Shown here piece after piece: positions 3,322-27,789 of a stretch of DNA of 64,000 bases. A model generated the notes under the pieces. The model was not told the origin of the DNA and searched no databases. It worked only from the letters and a program-made list of their open reading frames with translations. Origin of the DNA: an uncultured bacterium (lineage in GTDB: Bacteria; Actinomycetota; Actinomycetes; S36-B12; CAIKAW01). Positions within the stretch are counted from its first letter, which is position 1. Every line of letters starts with the position of its first letter. The translations under genes were made by a program, and so were the position numbers. Location: the NCBI GenBank assembly GCA_903825575.1, contig CAIKAW010000006.1:34168-98167 (forward strand), written 5' to 3'.

Positions 3322-3324
3322 AAG

Positions 3325-3597
3325 ATGTGTCTAGGCGTGCCGGGCCGGATCGATAAGATCTGGCAAGGAGACGGAGTCAGGATGGCAGCTGTCGACTTCG
3401 GGGGTGTGCGCAAGGAAGTATGCCTAGAGTTTCTACCGGACATTGAAGTCGGCGACTACACGATCGTTCACGTCGGTTTCGCCCTGACGAAACTGGATGA
3501 GAAGTCAGCCCTTGAAACGCTTGAGTTGATGCGAAGCGTCGGGCTCTTGGACGAAGAGTTCGGACTGGTCGCCGACCCGAATGAGGGACTCCGATGA
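3325..3597 (+). CDS. hypC: Hydrogenase assembly chaperone HypC/HupF
   Basis: 90 aa with the N-terminal MCLGVPGRI motif (essential Cys2). Lies between hypF and hypD. Confidence 0.9.
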
Positions 3598-4697
3598 AGT
3601 ATCTCGACGAGTTCGGTGATCCGGCAATCGCACGAGCCTTGCTTGACGACATCGCTCGAATCGTCACCAAGCCTTGGGCGATCATGGAGATCTGTGGCGG
3701 CCAGACTCACACGATCATCCGCAATGGGATCGATCAGTTGCTGCCAGGCGGTATCGAGTTAATCCATGGCCCCGGTTGTCCGGTATGCGTGACTCCACTC
3801 GAGACGATCGATCGGGCGATGGCGATAGCAGCGCTCCCTGGCGTGATCTTTGCCTCATTCGGCGACATGATTCGGGTCCCTGGATCGTCGGTGGACCTAT
3901 TCCAGATCAAAGCCAGCGGAGGCGATGTGCGCATTGTCTACTCGCCTTTAGATGCGGTTCGGATAGCGCAAGCCAATCCGGATAAGCAGGTGGTCTTCTT
4001 CGGTATCGGTTTCGAAACGACGGCCCCGGCTAATGCAATGACAGTTCAACTTGCCAAGCAACTCGGGTTACGCAATTTCTCGTTGCTCGCCTCCCACGTA
4101 CTTGTACCGCCAGCGATAACTGCGATTTTGGATTCACCGAGGCGGCGAGTACAAGGCTTTCTTGCCGCGGGGCATGTTTGCACTGTCATGGGTATGGGCG
4201 AGTACTTGCCATTGGTCGAGAAGTACCACGTGCCTATCGTCGTAACGGGGTTCGAGCCGCTCGATGTTCTGCAAGGGATTCGGATGGTGCTCGTGCAACT
4301 GGAGTCCGGACGGGCCGAGCTCGAGAACGCCTATCCTCGGGCTGTGTCGGCCGAAGGCAATCTTGCCGCGCAGGCAGTTGTTCGCGACGTCTTCACTGTT
4401 TGTGATCGTGCCTGGCGCGGAATCAGCGTGATTCCCGACTCCGGTTGGCGGGTTGCTGATAAGTACGCGGAATTCGACGCCGAACTTCGCTTCGACGTGT
4501 CGGATATCAAGGCCACTGAGTCACCGCTCTGCCATTCCGGTGAGGTTTTGCAAGGATTTCTTAAGCCCAATCAGTGCCCCGCATTTGGCCAAGAGTGCAC
4601 TCCCCGAAAACCTCTAGGGGCACCGATGGTCTCCAGCGAAGGTGCTTGCGCCGCGTACTACCACTTCCGGCGCATCCAGACTCCGGCTACTGCATGA
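3594..4697 (+). CDS. hypD: Hydrogenase formation protein HypD
   Basis: 367 aa with [18 protein letters not shown] and GFETTAP motifs and a C-terminal Cys cluster. ATGA overlap with the hypC stop. Confidence 0.95.
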
Positions 4698-5764
4698 GCG
4701 ATCGACCAGATCTCGAGAATTGGTCCTGCCCGCTCCCGCTTCGTGACCATCCAAACGTTGTGATGGGTCACGGTGGCGGCGGTCGATTGTCGGCTGAACT
4801 AGTTGAGCATTTGCTGTTGCCGGCCTTCGCCGGAACCCATGATGCCGACGTACTCAATCAACTAGGCGATGCTGCCGTGCTGTCCTTGTCCGGCCGGCGA
4901 GTTGCCTTTTCGACGGATTCCTATGTGGTGCAGCCCAGATTCTTCCCCGGCGGAAACATCGGTGACCTCGCCGTGAACGGGACCATTAACGATCTAGCAG
5001 TGTCTGGCGCCGTGCCGCTCGCGCTGTCGGTTGGACTCATCTTGGAAGAGGGCTTGGCATTAAGTGAGTTGGCGTTCATCGCAAACACAATGGGCATGGC
5101 TGCGCGCCGGGCTGGGGTATCGATCGTTACGGGGGATACCAAGGTCGTCGATTTCGGGCACGGAGACGGGGTCTACATCAACACATCAGGAATCGGGGTC
5201 GTACCTGCCGGGGTCGACCTTGGGCCCCACCGAGTGACTCCCGGAGACGCCGTAATCGTGTCCGGTGTTATTGGTCGACATGGGGTGGCTGTGCTCAGCG
5301 TTCGTGAGGGTTTGGAATTCGGCTCGGATATCTGCACCGACACCGTGCCTTTGAATGGCTTGGTCCACGACTTGCTCGGTTCTGGCGTTGAGGTCCACAT
5401 GATGCGCGACCCAACCCGCGGTGGGGTGGCCGCGACGCTAAATGAGATCGCCACGTCGGCGCGGGTGGGCGTAGAGATCGTCGAGCGCAACGTGCCGGTA
5501 CCTGATGACGTCCGGGCCGCATGTGGCTTCCTTGGTCTTGACCCTTTGTATGTGGCCAACGAAGGTTGTTTGGTTGCCTTCGTGTCCGCTGCCGATGCCG
5601 ACCAAGCCATCGCGGTCATGCGCAACCATGAGTTTGGTCGGGACGCGACGTTAATCGGCTACGTGACGGGCGACCATGTTGGAACTGTCGTGGCCCGGAC
5701 CTCCATCGGTGGCCAACGAGTGGTCGATCTTCCGTTAGCTGAGCAACTGCCGAGGATCTGTTAG
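4694..5764 (+). CDS. hypE: Hydrogenase expression/formation protein HypE (carbamoyl dehydratase)
   Basis: The ORF-track start at 4574 would overlap hypD by 124 nt. The internal ATG at 4694 overlaps the hypD stop (ATGA) and gives [18 protein letters not shown]-synthase-like fold. C-terminus ends LPRIC, the PR(I/V)C motif. Confidence 0.9.
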
Positions 5765-11591: not shown

Positions 11592-12548
11592 GTGAGGTCC
11601 TTCCGTAACTGGTTGCGTCGACTGGCCGTGCTGGTTGCGGGTTTGGCGGTCCTGTTGACGCTGTCCTCTTTCGGTTACAACGCATTGACTGGCTCACCGG
11701 TAGCCGCACCGACTGGGCTGAAGTATGTCAAGACCGGATCGTTCCTCACTCGCTACAAGACCTGGGGTACGGCGGGTTCTCCGGTTGTTCTAGTTCACGG
11801 GTTTATCGAGTCCGCTGACACTTGGGATCCGGTGGCCGAGTTGCTGGCAACTAATCACCGCGTCTATGCGTACGACGAACTTGGGTTTGGCTATACGCAG
11901 CGAATCTCGCAGATCGATCTAGCCGCCGAAACCAAACAGCTGCTTGATTTCTTGGCCGAGATGGGGCTCACGCGCCCGCTCTTGGTGGGGCATTCAGCCG
12001 GCGCTGCCGTCATCGCCGAAGCAGCACTCCAAGACCCAACCGCCGTCGGGGGATTGGTGTTTCTTGACGGGGATGCGCTATCGCTGGGTGCTGGCCCGCC
12101 GGCCGCAGTGACTACGCTGATGATCAATCCATTCCGAACTACGTTTCTTCGGCTTGGGATTCGCTCGGACTACTTAATTCGAGCGGTCTACTCCTCTCAG
12201 TGTGGGCCTAGGTGCGCGCCTCTGGACGAGGCCGGGATTCAACAATGGCGCCGCCCGCTTCAAGTCCCGGGAGCGCTGGAGGGTTTGTGGTCGCTCAGTC
12301 GACACGGCGGGCTCGGACTGCCGATGTCCGAGGTGGCAAAGGTCAGCCTGTTGCCTGTGCCTAAGGGAGTCATCTTCGGAGCTGCAGATGTCGTCTTCGG
12401 AACGTCAGCGGCTGCGCAGACCGCCACGCGGATTGGCGCTCCGGCTCCCATCATCATCGCGGGCGCGCGTCACTTGACCTTGATCAGCCATGCCCAAGTT
12501 GTGGCGGCAGCAATTTCGGCCGTTGCTGCAAAGATTCGAGCCAGTTAA
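11592..12548 (+). CDS. Alpha/beta hydrolase
   Basis: 318 aa with an N-terminal signal/anchor, an HGF oxyanion region (VVLVHGFIES) and the nucleophile elbow VGHSAGA. Confidence 0.75.
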   Translation: MRSFRNWLRRLAVLVAGLAVLLTLSSFGYNALTGSPVAAPTGLKYVKTGSFLTRYKTWGTAGSPVVLVHGFIESADTWDPVAELLATNHRVYAYDELGFGYTQRISQIDLAAETKQLLDFLAEMGLTRPLLVGHSAGAAVIAEAALQDPTAVGGLVFLDGDALSLGAGPPAAVTTLMINPFRTTFLRLGIRSDYLIRAVYSSQCGPRCAPLDEAGIQQWRRPLQVPGALEGLWSLSRHGGLGLPMSEVAKVSLLPVPKGVIFGAADVVFGTSAAAQTATRIGAPAPIIIAGARHLTLISHAQVVAAAISAVAAKIRAS

Positions 12549-13387
12549 CTAGTGATGTCCTTCGTCGTGAAGCGAGCCCAGGCCAAGCTGCCAAAGATTG
12601 CAATGTAGCCCAGTTGCAGAGCTGACCAGGTAAGCAGCGTCCCAAAATTGATTTGCAGCCGAAGTAGTTCGCCGAATCCGAGCCAATTGTGAGTGAAAAG
12701 CCACTGTCTCGACGCGCCCAATTGGGGAACGGCGTCCAACACTTCGACGATGATCGTGACGGCAACGGTGGCCGCCATGGCCGCGATAGGACCTTCCGTG
12801 AGGGTGGAGATGAACAATCCAAGGGCAACCAAGCCGGTTAGGGCGAAGGTCACGTAAGCGATGACACCCAAAGTTCGGAGCACACCGGAACCGACTGAGA
12901 CCGTGTCTCCCGACAGCAGGGTGAGTGGGTGAATCCCAAACAAGATGGCCCCGGTGATCAGGCCAGATACGGCAACCATCGCCAAGGCAGCGGCGCTATA
13001 CGCAAGAACGGCCAAGGCCTTGACGGCCAGCAGCCTGCCCCGGCCCACAGGCACCGTGAGCAGGTATCTGAGGGTCCCTATGTTGGCTTCGCCGGCGATG
13101 CTGTCCCCGGCAACTACTCCGATTGCAAGTGGAAGAAACAAAGGTAGGCAAACGCTGAGTGCGGTGTAGACCAGAAATAGGCCGTTGCCGGTCACCTGCC
13201 CTAGGAAGTCTGGGCCAGCGCCAGGCGGCGGTGCTGAAACCTTCACGGCGATGCCAATGAGCGCCGGCGGCCCGGCCAGTACCGCGAGCAGGGCCTGGTT
13301 CCTTCGGCGTCGAAAGACCAGTGCCAACTCACTGCGGATTAGACGGCCGAGATGGCCTGGTTGCGTTGCCGGTTCAACTAGCGACAT
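12545..13387 (-). CDS. ABC-2 type transporter permease
   Basis: 280 aa with about 6 TM segments. Overlaps the upstream ATPase gene by 14 nt. Confidence 0.75.
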   Translation of the reverse strand: MSLVEPATQPGHLGRLIRSELALVFRRRRNQALLAVLAGPPALIGIAVKVSAPPPGAGPDFLGQVTGNGLFLVYTALSVCLPLFLPLAIGVVAGDSIAGEANIGTLRYLLTVPVGRGRLLAVKALAVLAYSAAALAMVAVSGLITGAILFGIHPLTLLSGDTVSVGSGVLRTLGVIAYVTFALTGLVALGLFISTLTEGPIAAMAATVAVTIIVEVLDAVPQLGASRQWLFTHNWLGFGELLRLQINFGTLLTWSALQLGYIAIFGSLAWARFTTKDITS

Positions 13388-14339
13388 CGAAACCCTCGCC
13401 GGTAAGGCTGACGAAAAGATCTTCGAGAGCAGGCCGGGTCTGGGAAATACCTAGAACTGGAACGTCCGCGTTGACCAGGGCCCGGGTGATTTCGTCAACC
13501 CCGTGGCCGCACATGTTGGCCGTAACCGTCCCCTTGCCTAGGCCGGCTAGAACGTCCGAAAGCCCCAGCCTCGAGAGCACATGTTGCGCCGGGCCCGTAG
13601 CGTTTGTGAACAACAGCAAGCGGGGTTCGGCGCCGGCGAGAACTTCAGTCAAGGTTCCTTGGGAGATCAGCCTTCCGGCGCTCATGATGCCCACATGGGT
13701 GGCCACCTGTTCGACCTCGGCCAGCAGGTGGCTCGACACCAAGATGGTCGCGCCGTCTGCGGCGAGGGAGCGAATTAGGTGGCGCACTTCGCGCGTGCCT
13801 TGCGGGTCAAGGCCATTTGTCGGTTCGTCCAAGATCAACAACTTCCGGGGTTGCAACAGCGCGGCGGCGATCCCCAAGCGTTGCTTCATTCCCAGCGAGT
13901 ACTGCCGGTAACGCTTCGAGGCCGCAGCGGAAAGGCCGACTCGGCTCAAGGATTCGGCTATGCGTTCGGAGCTGCTGTGCGGATTAGCTGTTCGATCAGC
14001 GGCGTCAAGGCGTCGTAGGTTATCGGCGCCCGTGAGATAGGGGTGAAATGCCGGACCTTCAATGAGCGCGCCTACGCTCGGCAATACGAGGGCAGCTGAG
14101 CGAGGCATCGCGGAACCAAGGAGGTGAATGCTGCCCTCGTGCGCTGAAATCAGTCCGAGCAACATGCGGATGGTTGTTGTCTTGCCGGAACCATTTGGAC
14201 CAAGAAAGCCGTAAACCGCTCCAACTGGTACCCGCAAACTGACTTGGTCCACAGCTACTTGGTGGCCGAATCGACGAGTTAGACCCTCGCTAGCAACTGC
14301 TAGCGCACCGCCCCCGATATCCGGTACGCCTTGGGTCAC
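13374..14339 (-). CDS. ABC transporter ATP-binding protein (ABC-2 / DrrA-like)
   Basis: Walker A GPNGSGKTT, signature YSLGMKQRL, Walker B LLILDEPTNGLD. Confidence 0.9.
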   Translation of the reverse strand: MTQGVPDIGGGALAVASEGLTRRFGHQVAVDQVSLRVPVGAVYGFLGPNGSGKTTTIRMLLGLISAHEGSIHLLGSAMPRSAALVLPSVGALIEGPAFHPYLTGADNLRRLDAADRTANPHSSSERIAESLSRVGLSAAASKRYRQYSLGMKQRLGIAAALLQPRKLLILDEPTNGLDPQGTREVRHLIRSLAADGATILVSSHLLAEVEQVATHVGIMSAGRLISQGTLTEVLAGAEPRLLLFTNATGPAQHVLSRLGLSDVLAGLGKGTVTANMCGHGVDEITRALVNADVPVLGISQTRPALEDLFVSLTGEGFDVAS

Positions 14340-15447
14340 AGGCCACGACCGCTGGCAGCAACTTGCTGCAGCGATGCTGGGGAAACTGCGCCCACGTAAA
14401 GCCGCCCATCAGATGTAAGGAGAGCCGAGAACAACGAGGTGCTCAGAATCCGCCCTTCCGGGACGCTGGTGGCGACGCGATTGACTAGGTCAAGCAAAGA
14501 AGCGCCAGGGCCGCCGCTGGTGGTGTTGGGCATGGCCACTTGCGTGGCAGCGAACACGGCTGTCCAACCAGTGCCAAGAAAGTTCGGTGATCCCGAAGGA
14601 GCGCTGGCGCCCGATGGCGCGGCGCCCAGCCCGCTCGAGTGCGTCGGGACATGACCTTCGGTCAGTTGCGCGCCCGCCGGAGTCTGAAAATCGAAAGTGG
14701 CGGCGGAAGGTGCTGCGAAGTCGATGGAGGTGAAACCGGTTTCGAAGGCGGGAGCGCCACCGTTTCGGCCGAAGATCTCTACCCGCAACGGCAAATTAGT
14801 GGTGCCATCAATCGCAATCGTGATGCGCCCGATCAAGGTGCGACTATCGCGCGGAGTCAGAACCAGTTGGTAGACGCCTCGATTGGCTACCCATTCGGTC
14901 GAGTCAACGCTGACCTGGGTCGACGGATCCAATCCGGACACAAGTTGATTGGCAACGGTTATTGGGTCAAGGATCGGATTGGCGGCTTGCGTTTGGTCAG
15001 CGGCCATCCGTGGGGTCAAGGCGCCTAGCTCATAGTGCGTCACAGCATTTGTCGCAGATCGATAAATCCAAAGGTCTGGTCCCGAGCGGATGATGTCGCT
15101 CTCGGAGAGTTGGCCCAGGACTGCTATTCGCTGGTGGGTCGGTCCGTCGATCCAGATTCGCAAGGTGTGGGACCCGGTCAGCGCGCTGGCGAGATCCAAG
15201 GACGATGCAGTGCGACCGTCGGACGGCAGTTCCGGCAGCCCTAGTCGGGCAGTTTCGACAATAGTTCCCGAAAGCACGTCCGTCTGTGCAGTGGCAATTG
15301 CTGCCAAAAGTGCCTGGGGAGTCCGAGGTGGCAGCCCCGGATGTCCGGCCCCACTGGCAACACCCGGCAGTATCGCGATACCGGCCGTCGCCACCAGTGC
15401 TCCGGTGGGGACTGCCCATTGCCACTTAACCCTGCTTGCCCAGGCCA
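14336..15447 (-). CDS. Secreted LolA/RseB-like (outer-membrane lipoprotein carrier fold) protein
   Basis: The C-terminal ~370 codons of the 614-aa track ORF. GTG at 15447 gives a signal-like N-terminus, VAWASRVKWQWAVPTGALVATAGIAILPGVASGA. The remaining upstream part is antisense to the histidine kinase. The start codon is uncertain. Confidence 0.55.
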
Positions 15448-15583
15448 CAAAACCATTATGCGCTCGACTTCCCGAAGCCGCATTTACGAATACAATTCGT
15501 GTCCAAACGGTTGCGCTTGGTAGGTTCCTCGCCGGTAACCTTGACCTGAGGGGTACCTGAGAGGAATAGGCGGGTGAGTCGCG

Positions 15584-17509
15584 GTGGCGAGGACTGTGCC
15601 CGGGCACTCCGACGCGACCCTGACCGCTGCAGCCCGCTGGACGCCTTCCCGGTATGAAGCCCTTGTGGCGGCGGCGTTGGACGCAATCGTCATCATCGAC
15701 AGTGACGGCCGGGTCATCGAGTTCAACCCTGCCGCTGAGGCCCTTTTCGGGTACAGCCACGACGATGTAGTCGGGCAACAGATGGAGAACCTGATCGTGC
15801 CCGAGCGTCTCCGCCATGCGCACAATGGCGGCATCGCGCGTTACCTTGCCACCGGAGAGGGTCCGGCGCTGAACCGTCGTGTGGAAGTGCCAGCAATCCG
15901 GGCCGATGGCACCGAAATCATCGTCGAACTCATTGCAATTCCCCTTGAGACAGACGGTCGCGTCGAGTTCGCCGCATTCCTGCGCGACTTGACCGAAGTT
16001 CGTCGGGCGAACGAATCGGTGGCCCGGTCGGAAGAGCGCTATCGGACGCTGATCAATCGGGCCCAACAAAGCATCTCCATTCTTGATGCCGATGGAAACT
16101 GGGTAACGTCGACCGGGTCGGCATTCCTTGGACATCCGGCAGGCTTCGACCCGCCTGGTGGCATCTTCGCGCTTATCCACGCAGACGATCGCGAACGCGC
16201 CCTTAGTGCCTTTGCCAATGTGGTGGCGGGGAGCCGAGCCCCTGACGAGATAAGCGACTTCCGAGTGCGCAATAGCGACGGCGAATACCGGACTTGCGCG
16301 GTCTCGGGGGAGAACTTGCTGGCTGATCCAAGTATCGAGGGGGTTGTCCTTCGAGCTTGGGACGTAACCGAGGAACGGGCTCGCGAATCGTTACTACGTA
16401 TGGTCAACGCACAACTTCGCACGGTCATAGGTGTATTGCCGCTAGCGGTCATGGTCGAGGACGCCCAGGATCGGGTCGCAATGGTCAACGAGCTCTTCGT
16501 CAAATTGATGAAATGGGACGGGTCGCCCGATGACTTGGTTGGCACAGACCTGCATGGGCCGTCTGTGTGGCCGGTGCACCTGTTTGAGGATCCGGTTGAG
16601 TATGCCCGCAGAGCACAGCAGCTTCACGATGAGCGCAACCGAGGAACAGACGAAATTAAGATGCTGGACGGTCGGGTCTTTCGACGAGACTGCATTCCGA
16701 TCGAAGTTGAGGGCTCGTTCGCCGGGTTACTTTGGATGTATCGCGAAGAGACCGAAGAATTCAACTACATGGCCGCGTTGGCAGAACAAAACCGGGCGTT
16801 AGAACAGTTGACCCGACTGAAGAACGAGTTTGTGGCGACGGTGTCTCATGAACTTCGCACGCCCTTGACTTCGGTGATCAGCTTCGGCGGGTTGCTGCGC
16901 GAACCAGAGGTCGGCGAGTTGAACGAGGAACAGAGTGGGTTGCTGGACGTCATCGATCGCAATGCCCAGCGACTCCTGCGCCTCATCGGCGACCTGCTGC
17001 TCCTGGCCAAACTCGAGTCGAACTCCCTATCCATCGAATTGGAGACTCTTGACCTGCCGACCATCGTGCTACACGCGGTCGCGGAAGTTGCACCCTCGGC
17101 GCGCCTGGGCGACGTCCTCGTAAGTGAGGAAATCGGGCTTGGCCCGCGATATGTAGGGGACGCAGTGCGACTGCATCAGGTGATGAACAATCTGTTAGAT
17201 AACGCCGTGAAGTTCACCCCAGCGGGGGGCAACGTGCGGGTTCATTTGAGCTCGGATCCGCAGGCTTGGACTCTGACAGTCGCCGATAGCGGGATCGGTA
17301 TTCCTGCAGGAGAACAACACCGGGTCTTCACAAGCTTCTACCGGGGATCAAACACTCGAGATCGCAAGGCGCCCGGCACTGGGCTGGGTTTGGCGATCAC
17401 CAAGGTGATCGTTGAACTCCACGGGGGTAGCATCAGCGTCGCAAGTGAGCAGGGGGTCGGCACGACCATGACCGTCATCCTTCCAATCAGGGCAGGGGGA
17501 GCGTCTTAG
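15584..17509 (+). CDS. Soluble PAS-domain sensor histidine kinase (three PAS-like modules, HisKA, HATPase_c)
   Basis: 641 aa with no TM segment. H-box VSHELRTPLTSV, N-box NLLDNAVKFTP and G-boxes DSGIGIP / GTGLGLAI. Confidence 0.9.
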   Translation: MARTVPGHSDATLTAAARWTPSRYEALVAAALDAIVIIDSDGRVIEFNPAAEALFGYSHDDVVGQQMENLIVPERLRHAHNGGIARYLATGEGPALNRRVEVPAIRADGTEIIVELIAIPLETDGRVEFAAFLRDLTEVRRANESVARSEERYRTLINRAQQSISILDADGNWVTSTGSAFLGHPAGFDPPGGIFALIHADDRERALSAFANVVAGSRAPDEISDFRVRNSDGEYRTCAVSGENLLADPSIEGVVLRAWDVTEERARESLLRMVNAQLRTVIGVLPLAVMVEDAQDRVAMVNELFVKLMKWDGSPDDLVGTDLHGPSVWPVHLFEDPVEYARRAQQLHDERNRGTDEIKMLDGRVFRRDCIPIEVEGSFAGLLWMYREETEEFNYMAALAEQNRALEQLTRLKNEFVATVSHELRTPLTSVISFGGLLREPEVGELNEEQSGLLDVIDRNAQRLLRLIGDLLLLAKLESNSLSIELETLDLPTIVLHAVAEVAPSARLGDVLVSEEIGLGPRYVGDAVRLHQVMNNLLDNAVKFTPAGGNVRVHLSSDPQAWTLTVADSGIGIPAGEQHRVFTSFYRGSNTRDRKAPGTGLGLAITKVIVELHGGSISVASEQGVGTTMTVILPIRAGGAS

Positions 17510-18201
17510 TGACCAAGATCCTTGTGGTCGAAGATGAGCCCGACATCTTCCAGGCCGTGCAAGCGATTCTGCAGCGACGCAATTTCGAGGTTGTAATGGC
17601 GGAAGACGGCCCGACCGCGTTACGACTGTTCTACGACATTCGACCCGACTTGATCATTCTTGATTTGGGACTTCCGGTGGTCGACGGTTGGCATGTGCTT
17701 TCTCGAATCCGTGATTTTGCCAACGTGCCGGTTATCATTCTGACGGCCGCTGGCCGCGATGAAGACAAGGTGCGAGGCTTGCGTTCTGGGGCCGATGACT
17801 ATCTGACCAAGCCGTTCTCCAATTCCGAATTGGTGGCTCGGGTGGAGGCATTGCTTCGACGCGCTGGAGACCCGCATTGGACCCAGCCGGAATTTGGCGA
17901 TGGCCAGTTGGTCATTTCGCCCGGTCGTCGGACCGTCACGGTAGACGGATTAGATGTGGCTCTGACGCCATTGGAGTTTCGGCTGCTATCAGTTTTGGTT
18001 CGAAACGCAGGCCAACTTCTCGGAGTTGAGCAGTTGCTTTCGCTGGTCTGGGAGGATTCCAGCGGTATTGGAGCCGAGCGTGTGAAGTACACAATCTTGA
18101 GACTACGACGCAAACTTGGTTGGGATGACCCCTCGTCGTCACCGATTGAGTCTGTTCGCGGTGCTGGCTATCGCTACAAATCGGTCCGAAGCGGCAGCTG
18201 A
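17509..18201 (+). CDS. OmpR/PhoB-family response regulator
   Basis: 230 aa. Receiver domain (KILVVEDEPD, LIILDLGLP, LTKPF) plus a winged-helix C-terminus (LTPLEFRLLSVL...VRGAGYRY). Its GTG overlaps the kinase TAG by 1 nt. Confidence 0.9.
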   Translation: MTKILVVEDEPDIFQAVQAILQRRNFEVVMAEDGPTALRLFYDIRPDLIILDLGLPVVDGWHVLSRIRDFANVPVIILTAAGRDEDKVRGLRSGADDYLTKPFSNSELVARVEALLRRAGDPHWTQPEFGDGQLVISPGRRTVTVDGLDVALTPLEFRLLSVLVRNAGQLLGVEQLLSLVWEDSSGIGAERVKYTILRLRRKLGWDDPSSSPIESVRGAGYRYKSVRSGS

Positions 18202-19262
18202 TGTCCAATAATCAGGACCTTGAACGGATCGCACGCATTCTGGTCGTGGAAGACGACGATGACCAGCGGACGTACCTCATGCATGTGCTTCGCCGCCTTG
18301 GCAACCTTGAACCGATCGGCGTCGGCGACCCTGAATCAGCGCTGGAACTGTTAGCAAATGAACACTGGGATCTACTCATAACCGACCTGATCTTGCCTGG
18401 ACGCAACGGGTTGAATCTGGCCGATGAGGCTCAGGAACACCACGGCGGTCTTCCGGTAATTGTCGTGACTGCGCACCCATCGTTTGAGACTGCGGTCGAA
18501 GCGGTGCGGGCCGGCGTCAGCGATTTCCTAGTCAAGCCCCTCGATGCTGACCGCCTGCTGGCTGCCGTTGACCGGGCGCTATCGGGTTTTCACCGAGTAA
18601 CTTCGCGGGTCCTTGCTATTGGCGCTCATCCAGACGACGTCGAACTCGGTTGCGGTGGGGCTTTGGCTCTACATCGAATCCACGGTGACGAGATAACGAT
18701 CTTGACGATGAGCCAAGGCGCTGAAACCCCGGACCTTGAACATCGGCTCAAGCAAGCTGCGCTGTCCGCGCAGCGACTGGGAGCCACCCTGATCATGCAC
18801 ACTCTTCGGGAAACGATGATCGCGGAGTCACCAACGGTAGATGAACTAATCGCCGCTGCGATCAGTGAGATCCGCCCAGACACGGTTTACGTGCACACAC
18901 CCCAAGACGTTGTAACCGACCACCGAGCTGTGAATGCAAGCACCCGCCGGGTGGCCCGAGCTGTGCCTAGATTGCTTTGCTATCAATCGCCTTCCTCGAC
19001 TGTGGATTTTCACCCGGTTGAGTTCATCGGAATCGATAATGGACTCGATTCGAAGCTAGGCGCATTGGGAGCATTCTTGGAAGCGGCCCCAGACCGCGAA
19101 TACCTGTCGCCTGAAATGGTTCGCGCAACAGCACGCTACTGGGGGCGGTTCGCGTCGGCGAAGTACGCCGAGCCATTTGAGGTAGTGCGGGACCGATTGG
19201 ACCGTCGTACGGATCGACTGGATTTGCCCGTCGGGCGTCCCACTCGCGCCGGGCGCGGCTGA
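18201..19262 (+). CDS. Response-regulator receiver domain fused to a PIG-L/LmbE-family deacetylase domain
   Basis: 353 aa. The N-terminus has ILVVEDDDD, DLLITDLILPG, VIVVTAH and FLVKP. The C-terminus has VLAIGAHPDDVELGCGG and a later TDH. Its ATG overlaps the upstream TGA (TGATG). Confidence 0.8.
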   Translation: MSNNQDLERIARILVVEDDDDQRTYLMHVLRRLGNLEPIGVGDPESALELLANEHWDLLITDLILPGRNGLNLADEAQEHHGGLPVIVVTAHPSFETAVEAVRAGVSDFLVKPLDADRLLAAVDRALSGFHRVTSRVLAIGAHPDDVELGCGGALALHRIHGDEITILTMSQGAETPDLEHRLKQAALSAQRLGATLIMHTLRETMIAESPTVDELIAAAISEIRPDTVYVHTPQDVVTDHRAVNASTRRVARAVPRLLCYQSPSSTVDFHPVEFIGIDNGLDSKLGALGAFLEAAPDREYLSPEMVRATARYWGRFASAKYAEPFEVVRDRLDRRTDRLDLPVGRPTRAGRG

Positions 19263-19277
19263 AACGAGCTAACCAGA

Positions 19278-21011
19278 GTGTTGCTCCGATTGCTTGGGCC
19301 AAGACTTCGGCCTTACCGAGGGACCGTCGTCGTGATTGTTTCTCTGCTGCTGCTCCAAGCGATCGGGAACCTCTACCTGCCGACGCTTAACGCAGACCTG
19401 ATAAACAACGGTGTTATCCGCAGCGACCTGGCCTATGTTTGGCGTGCGGGACAGCAAATGCTGCTGGTTGTTATAGCTATTGCGGTTGTCTCATTCGCCG
19501 GAGTCTGGCTCTCCTCACGCGTTGCGATGGCGGTGGGACGGGATTTGCGTAAGGAGGTTTTCGACTCCGTACTCGATTTTGCAGAAGACGAATTCGCCAA
19601 TTTCGGTAGCGCTTCGTTGATCACCCGCAACACGAACGACGTCCAACAGATTCTCAATTTCGTACAGGTTGCCCTAACCGTCATGGTGCTTGCGCCGATC
19701 CAAGCAATTGGTGGGATCTTCATGGCGATGCGCCAAGATTTGCGACTCTCGACTCTATTGGCCGTGGCGGTCCCACTATTGGCCGTAGTAATTGGCGTTG
19801 TTATGGCGCGAGCGGTGCCACTGTTTCGAACACTCCAGGTCAGGATTGATGCAGTCAATCGGGTCCTGCGAGAGCAGATTACGGGTATTCGAGTCATCCG
19901 AGCTTTCGCGCGGGAAGACTTCGAGACGCAGCGCTTCGAGAAGGTCAATCGAGATTTGACGAGCAATGCCCTCGGGGTGAATCGACTGTTTGTCGTTGCG
20001 ATGCCGGCCATGATGCTGATTCTCAACATCTCGACGGTGTCTGTGATCTGGTTCGGTGGGCACCTCGTTGAGCGAGGTCAATTGCAGATTGGAACCCTCT
20101 CCGCCTTCCTCAGTTACATCATGCAGATTCTGGTATCTGTGCTGATGGCTGTAATGGTCATCATTCTCGTCCCGCGTGCGAGTGCTAGTGCAGAGCGGAT
20201 TGCGGCGGTCCTGGCCGTAGTCCCGAGCATCAGTGACCCCGTCAACGCTGTGGTTCCTGGGCAACCGAGAGGAGGGGTGGAATTCCGGTCGGTCTCGTAC
20301 AGGTATCCGGGTGCGGCAGACGCTGTGGTTGCCGACATTTCATTGCTGATTGAAGCCGGATGTTTTACGGCGATAGTCGGGTCAACCGGATCCGGGAAGA
20401 CGACCCTGCTGAACTTGATTCCGCGGCTGACTGATGCTTCGACTGGTTTGGTGCTAGTGGACGGGATTGACGTCCGCCAACAAGGACGCAATGCCTTGTG
20501 GTTCGGGATTGGTCTGGTGCCACAGCGGCCGTACCTATTTGCCGGCACCGTAGCCGACAACGTACGGCTAGGCGCCGACTCGGCTTCCGACGAAGATGTT
20601 TGGTGGGCTCTGGAGGTGGCTCAGGCGCGGGATTTTGTGGTTGAACTCCCTGGCCAACTTCAGGCCAACGTCTCCCAAGGTGGGGGTAACTTTTCCGGCG
20701 GCCAGCGCCAGCGGCTAGCCATCGCCAGAGCGGTCGTTCGTCGACCGCGGCTATACCTGTTCGACGATAGTTTCGCTTCGTTAGATGCCCAAACCGATGC
20801 GAATTTGCGCGCTGCGTTGCTTCGGGAATTATCGGGTTCGACAGTTGTCGTAGTGGCTCAGCGAATCAGCACCATCCTTGATGCCGACCGAATTGTCGTA
20901 CTTGAGGCGGGTCGGGTAGTTGGGGTTGGAACGCACGGTGAGTTGCTCGAGTTGTCGGCGGTTTATCAGGAGATTGTTGTCTCACAACTGGGTCCGGTGG
21001 CAAGGTCATGA
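19278..21011 (+). CDS. ABC exporter, fused permease/ATPase (half-transporter 1)
   Basis: 577 aa. Six-TM exporter domain, Walker A GSTGSGKTT, signature FSGGQRQRLAIARA and Walker B LYLFDDSFASLD. Confidence 0.9.
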   Translation: MLLRLLGPRLRPYRGTVVVIVSLLLLQAIGNLYLPTLNADLINNGVIRSDLAYVWRAGQQMLLVVIAIAVVSFAGVWLSSRVAMAVGRDLRKEVFDSVLDFAEDEFANFGSASLITRNTNDVQQILNFVQVALTVMVLAPIQAIGGIFMAMRQDLRLSTLLAVAVPLLAVVIGVVMARAVPLFRTLQVRIDAVNRVLREQITGIRVIRAFAREDFETQRFEKVNRDLTSNALGVNRLFVVAMPAMMLILNISTVSVIWFGGHLVERGQLQIGTLSAFLSYIMQILVSVLMAVMVIILVPRASASAERIAAVLAVVPSISDPVNAVVPGQPRGGVEFRSVSYRYPGAADAVVADISLLIEAGCFTAIVGSTGSGKTTLLNLIPRLTDASTGLVLVDGIDVRQQGRNALWFGIGLVPQRPYLFAGTVADNVRLGADSASDEDVWWALEVAQARDFVVELPGQLQANVSQGGGNFSGGQRQRLAIARAVVRRPRLYLFDDSFASLDAQTDANLRAALLRELSGSTVVVVAQRISTILDADRIVVLEAGRVVGVGTHGELLELSAVYQEIVVSQLGPVARS

Positions 21012-22975
21012 GCGGGTTCGGCGGAGGGCAACGGGGTCCTGGACCTGGTGGTCGTGGGCCGATGGGTGGAGGCCCAATGGGCCCTCCGGGAGCCGCTACC
21101 GCACCAAGGCTGGTCTTGCGCCAACTCCTTGGAAACCTCAAGGTGGAGCGACCGGTAATGCTGGCGGCGCTCGCCTTGAATGCCGTTGGGGTGCTCTTGA
21201 CCATCAGCGGACCGCGGTTGCTCGGCCACGCGACCAATATCGTCTTTGAGGGAATCGTCGGCAAGCGGTTGCCGACCGGTATGTCTAAGAGTCAGGTGCT
21301 TGCACACCTGAGGGCTACCGGTCAGGGAAGACTTGCTGATCTGCTTGGCCCGATGAACGTGATACCGGGCGCAGGGGTGAATTGGTCGGCATTCCGTACG
21401 TCGATTGTCGTGGTGTTAGCTGCCTACTTGCTCGGCTCGGTCTTCAGTTGGGCGCAGGGCTACTTGTTGGCCGGGGTCGCACAACGCACCGTCGCCAAAC
21501 TTCGAACCGATGTGGAGACAAAGATTCATCGAGTGCCGCTGTCCTACCTCGACAGTCAAGAGCGCGGCGAACTGCTCTCCCGCGTTACCAACGACATCGA
21601 CAACATTGGCACCACCTTGCAGCAGGGGATGGGGCAACTGCTCAATTCAGTCCTGACAATCATTGGCGTCATCGGGCTGATGTTCTGGATCAGTCCGCTA
21701 CTAGCCGCTATTTCCTTGCTAGTGCTGCCGGCTTCGGGATTGGTCACTTGGTTGATCGCGCGGCGGTCGCAGCGCGAGTTCTCTGACCAATGGGCGAGAA
21801 CCGGTCGACTCAACGCCCACGTCGAAGGCGTTCACAGCGGGCATACGATCATTCAAGTTTTCGGGGCAACGCAACACGCCAAAGCCGCCTTCGACGAGCA
21901 AAACCAGGCCCTGTACCACGCGAGTTTCCGTGCCCAAGTGCTTTCCGGGATTGTCCAACCGGCGATGGGTTTCATTGGCTACCTGCACTTCGTCGCCATC
22001 GCCGTCATTGGCGGTTATCGCGTCGCGGCCGGTGGCCTGCTCTTAGGTGACCTTCAAGCTTTCATCCAGTATTCGAGGACGTTCACCATGCCGATCACTC
22101 AGATCGCGTCGCAACTAAACCTGCTGCAATCTGGTCTGGCTTCGGCGGAGCGAGTCTTTGACCTACTGGATGCACCAGAAGAAGTGGAGTTGGAAGGGGC
22201 ACCTGAAATCGAGCTGTCTAACCTTGGCCAGATCTCATTCGACGGTGTGGACTTCGCGTATCGGGAAGCCGAGCCGGTCATCACCGGACTAGATCTGGTG
22301 ATTGAGCGAGGCCAAACGATCGCCATCGTTGGGCCGACGGGAGCCGGTAAGACGACACTCGTCAATTTGCTGCTGCGCTTCTATGACGTCTCGGCCGGAT
22401 CGATTCGGATCGATGGAATAGACATCAGGACTCTTCCGCGCAAGCAATTGCGACAGATTTACGCCATGGTGCTGCAGGAAACTTGGCTATTTGCTGGAAC
22501 CATCCGGGAGAACGTTGCCTATGGGCGGCTCGGAGCGAGCGATGCGGAGATATTGGACGCGTGCAGAGCCGCCCGGGTCGATCGCTTTGTCCGAACCCTT
22601 CCAGCTGGCCTAGACACCGTAATAGACGAGTCGGCCGAGAACATCTCATCCGGCGAGAAGCAACTAATCACGATTGCTCGGGCTTTCCTTGCAGACCCCA
22701 GCGTTCTGATCCTGGACGAAGCGACCAGCAATGTTGATACCCGAACCGAAGTGGTGATTCAGGAGGCAATGTCGCAGTTAAGGCATGGCCGGACAAGTTT
22801 CGTGATTGCCCACCGACTCTCGACGATCAGAGGTGCGGACCTGATCGTTGTGCTTGACCACGGCCGGGTTGTGGAGGCCGGTCGCCACGAAGAGCTTCTC
22901 TTGGCCGAGGGGGCATACCACCGCTTGTACGCCCGTCAATTCAGTGGCAGCCGAGATTCAGCCGACTGGCTGTAA
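21008..22975 (+). CDS. ABC exporter, fused permease/ATPase (half-transporter 2) with a Gly/Pro-rich N-terminal extension
   Basis: 655 aa. Walker A GPTGAGKTT, signature SSGEKQLITIARA and Walker B ILDEATSNVD. ATGA overlap with the upstream gene. N-terminus is MSGFGGGQRGPGPGGRGPMGGGPMGPPGAATAP. Confidence 0.9.
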   Translation: MSGFGGGQRGPGPGGRGPMGGGPMGPPGAATAPRLVLRQLLGNLKVERPVMLAALALNAVGVLLTISGPRLLGHATNIVFEGIVGKRLPTGMSKSQVLAHLRATGQGRLADLLGPMNVIPGAGVNWSAFRTSIVVVLAAYLLGSVFSWAQGYLLAGVAQRTVAKLRTDVETKIHRVPLSYLDSQERGELLSRVTNDIDNIGTTLQQGMGQLLNSVLTIIGVIGLMFWISPLLAAISLLVLPASGLVTWLIARRSQREFSDQWARTGRLNAHVEGVHSGHTIIQVFGATQHAKAAFDEQNQALYHASFRAQVLSGIVQPAMGFIGYLHFVAIAVIGGYRVAAGGLLLGDLQAFIQYSRTFTMPITQIASQLNLLQSGLASAERVFDLLDAPEEVELEGAPEIELSNLGQISFDGVDFAYREAEPVITGLDLVIERGQTIAIVGPTGAGKTTLVNLLLRFYDVSAGSIRIDGIDIRTLPRKQLRQIYAMVLQETWLFAGTIRENVAYGRLGASDAEILDACRAARVDRFVRTLPAGLDTVIDESAENISSGEKQLITIARAFLADPSVLILDEATSNVDTRTEVVIQEAMSQLRHGRTSFVIAHRLSTIRGADLIVVLDHGRVVEAGRHEELLLAEGAYHRLYARQFSGSRDSADWL

Positions 22976-23093
22976 GAGTCACCCAGACGGCTGAATATCT
23001 CTGGTGGGGACCATGACTCGGGGTTTACCGCCCCTTAACGCCGGCCGATCTAACCTTCGTATTGACAGTTTCCAACTAGCTGGGGGTTCCAAA

Positions 23094-23954
23094 GTGACAT
23101 CATTCGTTCGCCGGGCGGCCATTGCCGCCGTAACCACGACTGCCGTGGTGGCGCTAGGGATGGCTGCTCCAGCCGTCGCTTCTGCTTCCACCGGCCATTC
23201 GGCCATCCACAAGATTGCCGCCCACCACGCTCCGGTCGCCCTTACCGCTGACCAGCAGACATTGGTTAGCGCCTTGGCGGCTGACAAAGCTGCAGCGAAG
23301 ACCGCGATCAAGGCTGCAAAGCAAGCTTTCAACGCAGATGCCGCAGTGGTGGCTGCTAAGGCCGCCCGCGACGCGGCATTTGCAGCAGCCGTCAGCCAGT
23401 CGGACTTCCTGACCGCATTGCAGGCGTACGACGCTGCCACCTCCGCTGCGGCAGCCACCCGTGACGCCGCAATCCAGGCAGCCAAGGACGCCCAGTGGGC
23501 GGCCGATGACGCTGCTTTCGTGGTCTACGACACCGCGACCACACCGGCTACCCAAGCCGATCGTGAGACGTACAGGCAGGCCGTGCACGCGGCTGACCTA
23601 GCCAAAGCTGTAGCTAACGCCGCCGCCAAGGCCACCTTCCGGACCAACACGCTGGGCGCAAAAGCTCAGTTGCTGGCCGACATGAAGGCCGCAGCCGGCG
23701 ATGACACAGCAATGGATGCAGCTGAGGCTGCTTTCCGCACCGCCACCGCAGCCGACCGCGCCACGCTGAAGGCAGCGTTGGCCGCCGACTGTGCGACCGC
23801 CAAGGCTGCTAAGGACGCTGCCGTTGCGGCGTACGAGGCCAGCACCGGCGAAACCTCGGCCCCGACGTACCCGTTCCTGCGTCATGGGCATGGGCATGGG
23901 CATGGCCATGGCCATGGGCACGGTCATGGTCACGGTCACGGTCACGGTCACTGA
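23094..23954 (+). CDS. Secreted alanine-rich protein with a C-terminal (His-Gly)n tail
   Basis: GTG at 23094 is preceded by ctggggg and gives a Sec-type signal, VTSFVRRAAIAAVTTTAVVALGMAAPAVA|SAS. The track start at 23004 is an alternative. The body is Ala/Lys/Asp-rich and predicted helical. It ends RHGHGHGHGHGHGHGHGHGHGHGH. Confidence 0.7.
   Translation: MTSFVRRAAIAAVTTTAVVALGMAAPAVASASTGHSAIHKIAAHHAPVALTADQQTLVSALAADKAAAKTAIKAAKQAFNADAAVVAAKAARDAAFAAAVSQSDFLTALQAYDAATSAAAATRDAAIQAAKDAQWAADDAAFVVYDTATTPATQADRETYRQAVHAADLAKAVANAAAKATFRTNTLGAKAQLLADMKAAAGDDTAMDAAEAAFRTATAADRATLKAALAADCATAKAAKDAAVAAYEASTGETSAPTYPFLRHGHGHGHGHGHGHGHGHGHGHGH
23883..23951 (+). repeat. Coding dipeptide repeat: 23 residues of alternating His-Gly (12 His, 11 Gly)
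   Basis: cat ggg cat ggg cat ggg cat ggc cat ggc cat ggg cac ggt cat ggt cac ggt cac ggt cac ggt cac, followed by TGA. Synonymous codons vary along the repeat. Confidence 0.95.
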
Positions 23955-26661: not shown

Positions 26662-27789
26662 GTGGCTGATCAACTTGCCCCCGAATGGGACCTTGAGCGC
26701 ACCCGATTGGCGCTTGCGGGTACTCGGCTTGGGCTCTGGGAATGGAATATGGAAACCGGCGCGGCCGTCTACGACGAACGCTGGGCCCAGATTGTCGGGC
26801 TTGAATTAGTCGACCTGCCGCCAGCCACGATCCAGACTTGGCGCCTACTGGCTCATCCTGAGGATTTGCGAGTTGCAGAATTCGAGATGCAGCGCCATGC
26901 CAAGGCCGAGACCGACCGATATGAGGCCGATATCCGCCTGCGTCATGCCGACGGCAGTTGGATTTGGGTGCGGGACCGTGGCTTGGTCGTTGAGCGAGCA
27001 GCAAATGGCCAAGCGGTCAGGATGGTCGGAACCCACGAGGACATAACCGAAAGCGTTCTGGCGCATCAGGAGCTAGTGGCATCCGAACGTCGCTTCGCCT
27101 CGATGTTCTACGACCACGAGGCCGTAATGCTTCTAGTAGACCCAGGCACCGGGCTGATTATCGACGCCAATCGGGCGGCTGCCAGTTTCTACGGCTATGA
27201 CCAGGACGAACTCCGGGAGATGTCGATCACCGCAATAAACATCTTGCCCCCAGATCAGGTTTCGACCCGCTACCACGAGGCATCTGCCCGCAAACGGGAG
27301 CATTTCGTGTTTCCGCACCGGCTCGCCGATGGAACCGTGCGCACGGTTGACGTGCACTCGTCGCCAATCGAGGAGCACGGAAGAGTCGTCCTGTTTTCGA
27401 TCATCTTGGATGTTACTGAAGATGAGCAGCACCAAGCCGAAACCCGGCAAGAATCGGTGGTATTCAAGAACATTCCCGACGCGGTTGCCGTAATCGGCCC
27501 AGACGGAACGGTCCTGCGTATCAACTCGGCCTTCTCGGCGATCTCTGGCTGGTCCGACACTCAGATTGTGGGCAGCGGCATCGAAGTATTTGTAGCCTCG
27601 GTTGACTTCGGCGTGGCGGAACTGGCCGCTATCGTCCGTGGCGGCAGCACCGTCAGGCAAGAACTGCAATTGCGATATGCCACCGGTGCCGTGACCACTC
27701 GTCGGGTCAGTTTTAGTCCCTTTGCCGGCCCGATGGGTGACCCGGCCGGTTGCATCATGTTGGTTACGCCCGCGACTGATCCGGAATAG
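26662..27789 (+). CDS. Stand-alone multi-PAS domain protein (no recognisable output domain)
   Basis: 375 aa with three PAS/PAC-like modules (LGLWEWNMETGAAVYDERW...; RRFASMFYDHEAVMLLVD...; FKNIPDAVAVIGPDGTVLRINSAF...). Starts 16 nt after the parE stop. Confidence 0.75.
   Translation: MADQLAPEWDLERTRLALAGTRLGLWEWNMETGAAVYDERWAQIVGLELVDLPPATIQTWRLLAHPEDLRVAEFEMQRHAKAETDRYEADIRLRHADGSWIWVRDRGLVVERAANGQAVRMVGTHEDITESVLAHQELVASERRFASMFYDHEAVMLLVDPGTGLIIDANRAAASFYGYDQDELREMSITAINILPPDQVSTRYHEASARKREHFVFPHRLADGTVRTVDVHSSPIEEHGRVVLFSIILDVTEDEQHQAETRQESVVFKNIPDAVAVIGPDGTVLRINSAFSAISGWSDTQIVGSGIEVFVASVDFGVAELAAIVRGGSTVRQELQLRYATGAVTTRRVSFSPFAGPMGDPAGCIMLVTPATDPE

Follow-up and report, generated by a model that had tools for sequence, protein, structure and literature searches.

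The 64,000-nucleotide stretch of contig CAIKAW010000006.1 analysed here (the window) carries a gene for a two-domain response regulator, in which an N-terminal receiver (REC) domain is joined to a PIG-L/LmbE domain, the fold of stand-alone zinc deacetylases such as BshB, BcZBP (BC1534) and TT1542. Two genes precede it, and all three are translationally coupled. The TAG stop codon of a histidine kinase gene shares one base with the GTG start of an OmpR-type regulator gene at position 17509 (TAGTG), and the TGA stop of the latter shares one base with the ATG of the REC-PIG-L gene at position 18201 (TGATG), an arrangement that brings one kinase together with two receivers. An initial annotation, made from the sequence alone, had described the third gene product as a receiver-deacetylase fusion in which both halves look functional and hence as a candidate phosphorylation-gated enzyme. 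The features at the locus are as follows.

15584-17509, plus strand: soluble sensor histidine kinase, PAS-PAS-HisKA-HATPase_c, 641 amino acids, presumed phosphodonor (Pfam)
17509-18201, plus strand: OmpR/PhoB-type DNA-binding response regulator, 230 amino acids (Response_reg 6.5e-29, Trans_reg_C 1.3e-17)
18201-19262, plus strand: REC-PIG-L/LmbE response regulator gene, uninterrupted 353-codon open reading frame (ORF) with ATG start, 353 amino acids
18231-18590, plus strand: receiver domain, residues 11-130, NtrC/LuxO/FleR-like (Pfam, NtrC alignment, Foldseek)
18384-18386, plus strand: codon of the phospho-acceptor D62 (alignment to NtrC D54)
18606-19196, plus strand: LmbE/PIG-L fold, residues 136-332 (Pfam, alignments, AlphaFold2 model, Foldseek)
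19206-19259, plus strand: Arg-rich, disordered and unconserved C-terminal tail, residues 336-353 (predicted local distance difference test score, pLDDT, <50; ratio of nonsynonymous to synonymous substitution rates, dN/dS, 0.26)
19278-22975, plus strand: two ABC exporter genes (ABC_membrane + ABC_tran), beginning 16 nucleotides downstream of the REC-PIG-L gene (Pfam)

The fusion at 18201-19262 is real and no chance match, and the initial annotation was borne out on this point by Pfam, by an AlphaFold2 model and by Foldseek. Response_reg (PF00072) occupies residues 13-123 of the 353-residue protein (E=6.9e-24; 84.6 bits, cutoff 30.2) and PIG-L (PF02585) residues 138-250 (E=3.2e-17; 63.7 bits, cutoff 28.2). 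The model, for which the input alignment held 49 family sequences, is confident (mean pLDDT 88.5, predicted template modelling score 0.71), with disorder limited to residues 1-7 and the Arg-rich tail at 335-353, and in it a linker of five residues joins helix alpha5 of the receiver to the LmbE fold. When compared with the Protein Data Bank by Foldseek, the N-terminal half matched isolated receiver domains, including those of VicR, ArlR and PmrA (template modelling score, TM-score, ~0.9). The C-terminal half superposed on TT1542 (1uan; TM-score 0.79, root-mean-square deviation 2.2 Å) and B. subtilis BshB (6p2t; TM-score 0.75), with BcZBP (2ixd) likewise matched. Such a superposition on LmbE enzymes had been proposed in the initial annotation, and the metal ligands were mapped by alignment. 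No solved structure combining a receiver with an LmbE fold was found among the Foldseek matches. The kinase gave strong Pfam matches to HATPase_c (3.9e-32), HisKA (1.3e-19) and PAS_9 (3e-18), and no transmembrane or hydrophobic segment was predicted in its 641 residues.

The receiver half of the model shows the five strand/helix pairs of a (beta-alpha)5 fold. Its nearest solved counterparts are the receivers of LuxO, FleR and NtrC, a similarity that concerns the receiver only, the AAA+ and helix-turn-helix domains of NtrC-type regulators being absent 3' of it. All of the motifs quoted in the initial annotation were found at their implied positions: EDDDD at 17-21, D62 within LLITDLILPG, T90 within VIVVTAH and FLVKP at 109-113, where K112 is followed by P113. 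In the alignment to NtrC (1dc7), residues D18/D19, D62, T90, F109 and K112 fall on D11/D12, D54, T82, Y101 and K104, and these positions are conserved throughout the REC-PIG-L family. The receiver is therefore canonical rather than degenerate by its residues, and should be phosphorylatable.

Active-site residues of the LmbE half

Residues of the C-terminal half were mapped by profile and pairwise alignments to BcZBP, BshB and TT1542. Five segments are of particular relevance.

18624-18638, plus strand: AHPDD motif, residues 142-146, with zinc ligand H143, general base D145 and zinc ligand D146, all kept (BcZBP alignment)
18744-18755, plus strand: R182-L-K-Q185, in which R182 corresponds to BcZBP Arg53/MshB Arg68 and Gln replaces the family E185
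18810-18812, plus strand: E204, at a family-invariant Asp position (BcZBP Asp76, MshB Asp95; Asp in 118 of 118 relatives)
18906-18923, plus strand: DVVTDH, residues 236-241, where the family has DVHQDH (V238 for His, T239 for Gln)
19080-19085, plus strand: E294-A295, where the family and the solved BcZBP, TT1542 and Dac enzymes have Ser-Gln (alignments)

The metal centre itself is complete. H143, D146 and H241 align to the BcZBP zinc ligands His12, Asp15 and His113, D145 to the general base Asp14 and D240 to Asp112, and every one of them is kept in the window protein. The initial annotation was thus correct in assigning zinc ligands and the catalytic Asp to the AHPDD segment, the residues of which are invariant across the REC-PIG-L family, and in looking to a later DH for the third ligand. 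Its further remark, that Val takes the place of the Glu expected in AHPDDE, carries no weight: the consensus of the family reads AHPDDVE and the sequence of BcZBP AHADDVE, the Glu simply lying one residue later.

The residues around the metal centre have fared differently. When compared with 118 relatives, the window protein departs from the consensus at 14 of the 75 strongly conserved columns of PIG-L, versus 1 of 20 in the receiver. The changed set comprises I149L, G176T, G177P, E185Q, D201T, D204E, T213V, H238V, Q239T, A247S, V250R, A251V, S294E and Q295A. At position 185 the family Glu is 99% conserved, and at position 238 Val replaces an active-site His (His110 in BshB and BcZBP, His144 in MshB) that is present in 117 of the 118 relatives. 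R182 is intact. A review of LmbE enzymes (PMC4101496) gives Arg68, Asp95 and His144, numbered as in MshB, as conserved throughout the superfamily, and reports that H144A and D146A leave MshB with no more than 1% activity, that R53A abolishes the activity of BshB and that H110A lowers it significantly. The absence of zinc ligands or base, which the initial annotation had named as the mark of a pseudo-enzyme, is thus not seen in these alignments, yet one further conserved catalytic-site residue, the His, is missing.

The solved BshB, BcZBP and TT1542 enzymes share with the window protein the AH(P/A)DDxE and xDH metal-binding motifs and the conserved Arg, and TT1542 shares in addition a C-terminal RYWG...YAEPF motif. 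They differ in having no receiver, and in having His110, Asp76 and Ser-Gln where the window protein has Val, Glu and Glu-Ala.

It is improbable, on this evidence, that the window protein is what the initial annotation took it to be, namely a fully functional MshB/BshB-type N-acetylglucosamine (GlcNAc) deacetylase switched by receiver phosphorylation. That reading has in its favour two Pfam domains well above threshold, the zinc ligands and catalytic Asp, and the canonical receiver, and among the canonical members it probably holds. It sits poorly with the loss of the LmbE-wide His and with the D204E, E185Q, GG to TP and SQ to EA replacements. Nor do the equivalog models support it, since the protein scores 62.2 bits against BshB1 (TIGR04001), below the equivalog cutoff of 182.5, and its match to MshB (4ewl, E=0.13) is limited to the N-terminal ~60 residues. 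No glycosyltransferase or ligase partner lies within the 64 kb. What stood of the claim that both halves are functional is the receiver, the metal ligands and the base; the part concerning the catalytic half is called into question by the replacement of G176/G177, E185, Asp204, His238 and S294-Q295. Because the usual partner genes and a key active-site His have both been lost, the window protein is probably not an ordinary (canonical) deacetylase.

The REC-PIG-L family and its canonical operon

Response regulators with an enzyme as output are a known kind, exemplified by CheB, PleD, RpfG, PorX and RssB. CheB, an N-terminal receiver followed by a methylesterase, is the textbook phosphorylation-gated hydrolase; it is a Ser hydrolase, with a catalytic fold and chemistry unrelated to those of the LmbE half described here. 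Fusions of bacterial receivers to ordinary metabolic enzymes have also been noted before (PMC5847659). The initial annotation considered a PIG-L output unusual, which holds among studied regulators and fails for the architecture as such, which is abundant. A search of 5.8 billion proteins returned 1117 matches at E<=1e-5, and both Pfam domains were present in 120 of the 120 matches listed (90%-identity clusters). With phmmer, 187 clusters were recovered at E<=1e-30 from 1.84 billion 50%-identity representatives, the alignment spanning both domains in 122 of the best 150, and at least 567 matches were confirmed when one genome per GTDB species was searched. Hosts include Leifsonia, Microbacterium, Cellulomonas, Blastococcus, one Streptomyces and Solirubrobacterales, as well as Legionella drozanskii, L. 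rowbothamii, Marinicella and Polyangiaceae.

Many members already bear the automatic JGI annotation 'LmbE family N-acetylglucosaminyl deacetylase/CheY-like chemotaxis protein', while a 97% relative of the window protein is named 'MAG: response regulator [Actinomycetes bacterium]' by NCBI. No experimental or comparative paper on a receiver-LmbE/PIG-L fusion was found within our limited literature coverage. The architecture is therefore very common, already auto-annotated and uncharacterised, and the bare fusion, widespread and named by annotation pipelines as it is, would not surprise a specialist. Of greater interest is the contrast between operon-embedded catalytic forms and recurrently eroded signalling forms, together with the undescribed glycan operon in which the former reside.

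This operon is recognisable across most of the family. An ATP-grasp gene and/or a GT2 glycosyltransferase gene lies within 8 kb of the REC-PIG-L gene in 70 of 82 evaluable loci. In most of the partnered loci the order on the same strand downstream is an ATP-grasp gene at about +1 kb, a PHP phosphoesterase gene at about +1.9 kb and a GT2 gene (~500 amino acids) at about +3 kb, followed by a gene for a small protein with a single transmembrane segment. A PAS kinase is often encoded upstream (together with an OmpR regulator in loci L003, L032, L038 and L053) or at about +5.4 kb. In locus L002 the operon genes overlap by 4-14 nucleotides. The ATP-grasp protein is PylC-like, and the GT2 protein is PgaC/NodC-like (TIGR03937, 1.4e-35), with a QRLRW processive-synthase motif and several predicted transmembrane segments. 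Examples are found at L002:10001-14414, L003:10001-13955 and about 55 more loci (L004-L070), in Actinomycetota, Thermoleophilia, Legionella, Marinicella and Polyangiaceae.

Nearly all partner-associated loci share a 13-site signature, H143 D145 D146 / G176 G177 / R182 / E185 / D204 / H238 Q239 D240 H241 / Q295, and R182, E185, D204, H238 and Q239 are kept at every one of them except L065. The gene content suggests an operon logic in which a GlcNAc-containing glycan would be made, de-N-acetylated and then re-acylated by the ATP-grasp protein, with the deacetylation step under what would be direct two-component control. This resembles the NodC/NodB/NodA and PgaC/PgaB systems, in which a processive GT2 synthase is likewise combined with a de-N-acetylase, the canonical operon adding an amide-forming ATP-grasp; it also resembles the logic of MshA/A2/B/C. 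It differs in that NodB and PgaB are CE4 enzymes and not LmbE proteins. No account of an operon combining ATP-grasp, PIG-L/LmbE and glycosyltransferase genes was found within the literature covered, so canonical members appear to mark an uncharacterised, widely distributed glycan-modification operon.

The canonical proteins of Leifsonia, Microbacterium, Cellulomonas, Blastococcus and Legionella drozanskii are 40-50% identical to the window protein and have the same architecture and receiver type, and loci L003, L032, L038 and L053 even share its gene order of histidine kinase, OmpR-type response regulator and REC-PIG-L protein. They differ in possessing both the site signature and the three biosynthetic partner genes, of which the window copy has neither. 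Its own signature reads HDD-TP-R-Q-E-VT-DH-A, and no homologue of the ATP-grasp, PHP or GT2 gene, including the NodC/PgaC-like synthase, was detected in the 64-kb window (tblastn, 1e-10) or on sibling contigs.

The ABC exporters immediately downstream were considered as a functional partner or substrate route, and were ruled out. In the 97%-identical sibling contig L084 (11062-11288) they are missing but for ~95 nucleotides of the 3' end of the second gene, a remnant that stands directly after the REC-PIG-L gene. Their loss from L084 is a recent deletion polymorphism, which means that they are not obligate partners, and the REC-PIG-L gene is still under purifying selection.

Constraint, erosion and the role of the LmbE half

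The PIG-L domain of the window protein is the most divergent of 118, with a mean identity to the others of 0.476 compared with 0.588 +/- 0.025 (minimum 0.497), whereas its receiver is typical (0.391 compared with 0.411 +/- 0.044). This divergence is not decay. Relative to the 97% sibling (dS ~0.5), the dN/dS values are 0.024 (receiver), 0.032 (PIG-L domain) and 0.072 (kinase), and with a value of about 0.03 the PIG-L domain must be regarded as still constrained. No truncation or frameshift was present among six lineage variants that are 97-100% identical (P0268, P0001, P0269 and P0271-P0273). A decaying pseudogene was ruled out on these two grounds.

The same figures make it very improbable that the protein serves solely as a phosphate sink, its receiver draining phosphoryl groups from the kinase and thereby tuning the OmpR-type regulator while a functionless LmbE half is being lost. 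The presence of one kinase and two receivers in a single operon would suit such a role, as would the recurrence of catalytic-site erosion in a family whose receivers stay intact. A functionless domain would hardly be held at a dN/dS as low as that of the receiver beside it or pass without a truncation through six variants; moreover, a C-terminal RYWGRF...EPFEV motif is conserved even in family members that have no zinc site.

Residues 182-185, which open the helix bearing the equivalent of Arg53/Arg68, are all polymorphic among the six variants (R182W, in two 99%-identical relatives, L183R, K184T and Q185L), and residue 294 varies too. Enrichment of polymorphism near lost family-conserved positions was marginal (p=0.05).

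Erosion of the catalytic site is a recurrent event in the family at large. Among 150 cluster representatives, 88 are fully canonical, 14 keep the zinc site while peripheral residues are lost (the class of the window protein and its sibling P0001) and 43 have an altered zinc ligand or base. In the altered-site forms AHPDD has become A[RL]PGD and HQDH has become xxNR or xxSR (P0150-P0265, e.g., P0210, P0224, P0255, P0183 and P0242). The receiver residues D62 and K112 are nonetheless kept in 42 of these 43, and the RYWGRF...EPFEV motif in all classes of the 150. From their residues, the altered-site representatives look like pseudo-deacetylase response regulators, and their number, together with the retention of D62 and K112, suggests that a non-catalytic role is common for the LmbE fold in receiver fusions. 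Position 204 is Glu in 7 of the 14 that keep the zinc site compared with 5 of the 43 that have lost it, where the residue is scattered.

Alteration of the site is associated with loss of the biosynthetic partners. Changes at R182, E185, D204, H238 or Q239 were found at 6 of 12 partner-less loci compared with 1 of 70 partner-associated loci (Fisher p=1.7e-5), and at 5 of 8 compared with 0 of 56 when only receiver-containing proteins were counted (p=7e-6), in tests made without phylogenetic correction on a locus set partly ascertained through the HQDH pattern. In a neighbour-joining (NJ) tree the eroded copies are polyphyletic and lie on long branches within otherwise canonical clades. The possibility that partner-less eroded copies form a single paralogous clade with the window protein was ruled out, given their scatter across the tree and an identity to that protein of only 39-43%.

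Several partner-less eroded copies remain beside kinase or receiver genes. Partner-less locus L054 (7905-11134) combines a REC-PIG-L protein with a stand-alone receiver and a PAS kinase, and partner-less L026 (7017-11056) encodes a divergently transcribed hybrid kinase with an Hpt domain, the same hybrid kinase being found at the canonical locus L002 (6692-11005). In a Longimicrobiales-type lineage (L050:9971-14251, L086:1237-5668) the REC-LmbE gene is followed by an M1 peptidase gene and, further on, by AccA; L050 keeps the zinc ligands and P0210 has lost them, which makes this a second independent erosion series. The neighbours of an eroded variant there (the P0210/P0179 pair) are housekeeping genes only (peptidase M1, AccA), in the same synteny as L050.

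The window protein is a bona fide two-domain response regulator of the large REC-LmbE family, and some property of its LmbE half is almost certainly under the control of phosphorylation. REC-PIG-L would form the second, non-transcriptional branch of the three-gene signalling operon, the OmpR-type regulator being the transcriptional one, and the translational coupling suggests that the PAS kinase phosphorylates both. A phosphoryl group on D62 would trigger the T90/F109 switch, and the signal could then pass through helix alpha5 and the five-residue linker to the LmbE fold. In canonical members that fold would act as a zinc de-N-acetylase alongside the ATP-grasp ligase, the PHP phosphoesterase and the processive membrane GT2 synthase. 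The window copy may be an orphaned and remodelled descendant of these, in which the metal centre and base were kept while the His, the invariant Asp and other invariant residues were replaced.

As to what this descendant does, we tentatively favour, at a level just short of calling it probable, the view that the ancestral GlcNAc-type deacetylase activity has been lost or strongly reduced, and that the zinc-binding LmbE fold now serves as a phosphorylation-controlled binding or oligomerisation module with catalysis at most residual. We lean towards a pseudo-enzyme output because the lost residues include catalytic machinery and not merely specificity determinants, because the Arg53 equivalent is polymorphic within the lineage, because there is no linked substrate pathway, and because the family repeatedly goes on to lose the metal site with the receiver preserved. 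RssB, a receiver joined to a PP2C-like pseudo-phosphatase that has lost its catalytic residues and acts as an adaptor by binding, provides a model both for this output and for the 43 altered-site representatives. The RssB fold is a different one, and the window protein keeps its metal ligands, so it could be at most a partial pseudo-enzyme.

Several observations weigh against a pseudo-enzyme output. The three zinc ligands, the base D145 and D240 are all intact, D204E is a conservative replacement and R182 is unchanged in the window protein itself. An active enzyme would be under purifying selection just as strong, the H144A mutant of MshB is not wholly inactive, and the prevalence of Glu204 among zinc-site keepers looks like remodelling, not decay. 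Partner genes could lie elsewhere, the view being one of 64 kb of the genome, and the uncorrected Fisher tests on a partly ascertained locus set temper the association with partner loss.

In the main rival reading the protein is an active, phosphorylation-gated zinc amidohydrolase whose pocket was rebuilt for another or modified, non-GlcNAc substrate after it left the polysaccharide operon. Its support lies in a metal centre (the zinc triad, with D145 and D240) that is intact even in the most divergent PIG-L domain of 118, in strong constraint (dN/dS 0.032) and in the conservative D204E exchange, which recurs among zinc-site keepers. In MshB and BshB the residues replaced here have been described as binding substrate (PMC4101496), and the LmbE fold supports other chemistries, the GalB hydratase (5cgz) being among the structural matches. 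We nevertheless consider it somewhat unlikely. His110/His144 and Arg53/Arg68 belong to the catalytic machinery of every characterised member and do not determine specificity only (PMC4101496), and a newly optimised pocket should be conserved, whereas R182W and three adjacent polymorphisms occur in a 99%-identical lineage. In addition, no candidate substrate pathway is encoded nearby, and the adjoining ABC exporters are deleted in the sibling.

Beyond the window, it is possible, if still rather doubtful, that REC-LmbE proteins make up an undescribed, two-state class of response regulators, existing either as the gated zinc de-N-acetylase of a glycan operon or as a repeatedly orphaned, non-catalytic output, and that the window protein, with its metal site intact and its catalytic His gone, would be a transitional form between them. 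Repeated erosion of the catalytic site, associated with partner loss and sparing the receiver, provides a natural series in which the passage from enzyme output to pseudo-enzyme signalling module could be studied. Annotators would do well not to give the window protein the label 'PIG-L deacetylase' unless its activity has been assayed.

The remainder of the window

Elsewhere the genes of the window are those of an ordinary actinobacterial chromosome, among them hypF/D/E, CorA and topoisomerase IV-like genes. Positions 1006-5764 (plus strand) carry the hydrogenase maturation genes hypF and hypD and a hypE-like gene with AIRS domains; next come a methyltransferase gene and CorA. The kinase gene is overlapped by a mechanically called 614-residue ORF at 14336-16180 (minus strand), where public gene calls have a protein of 352 amino acids, with no Pfam match, in the same orientation as an ABC-2 transporter pair (12545-14339, minus strand) and divergent from the kinase operon. 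Beyond the ABC exporters, an Ala-rich ORF of 316 amino acids (23004-23954, plus strand), also without a Pfam match, ends in a long C-terminal (His-Gly)n repeat (HGHGHG...), and its homologue in sibling contigs is 290-313 amino acids long, suggesting variation in repeat length. Directly 3' of a GyrB/ParE-like gene lies a gene for a 375-residue PAS-only protein (26662-27789, plus strand), which is conserved in sibling contigs, as is the DUF7455 gene upstream of it.

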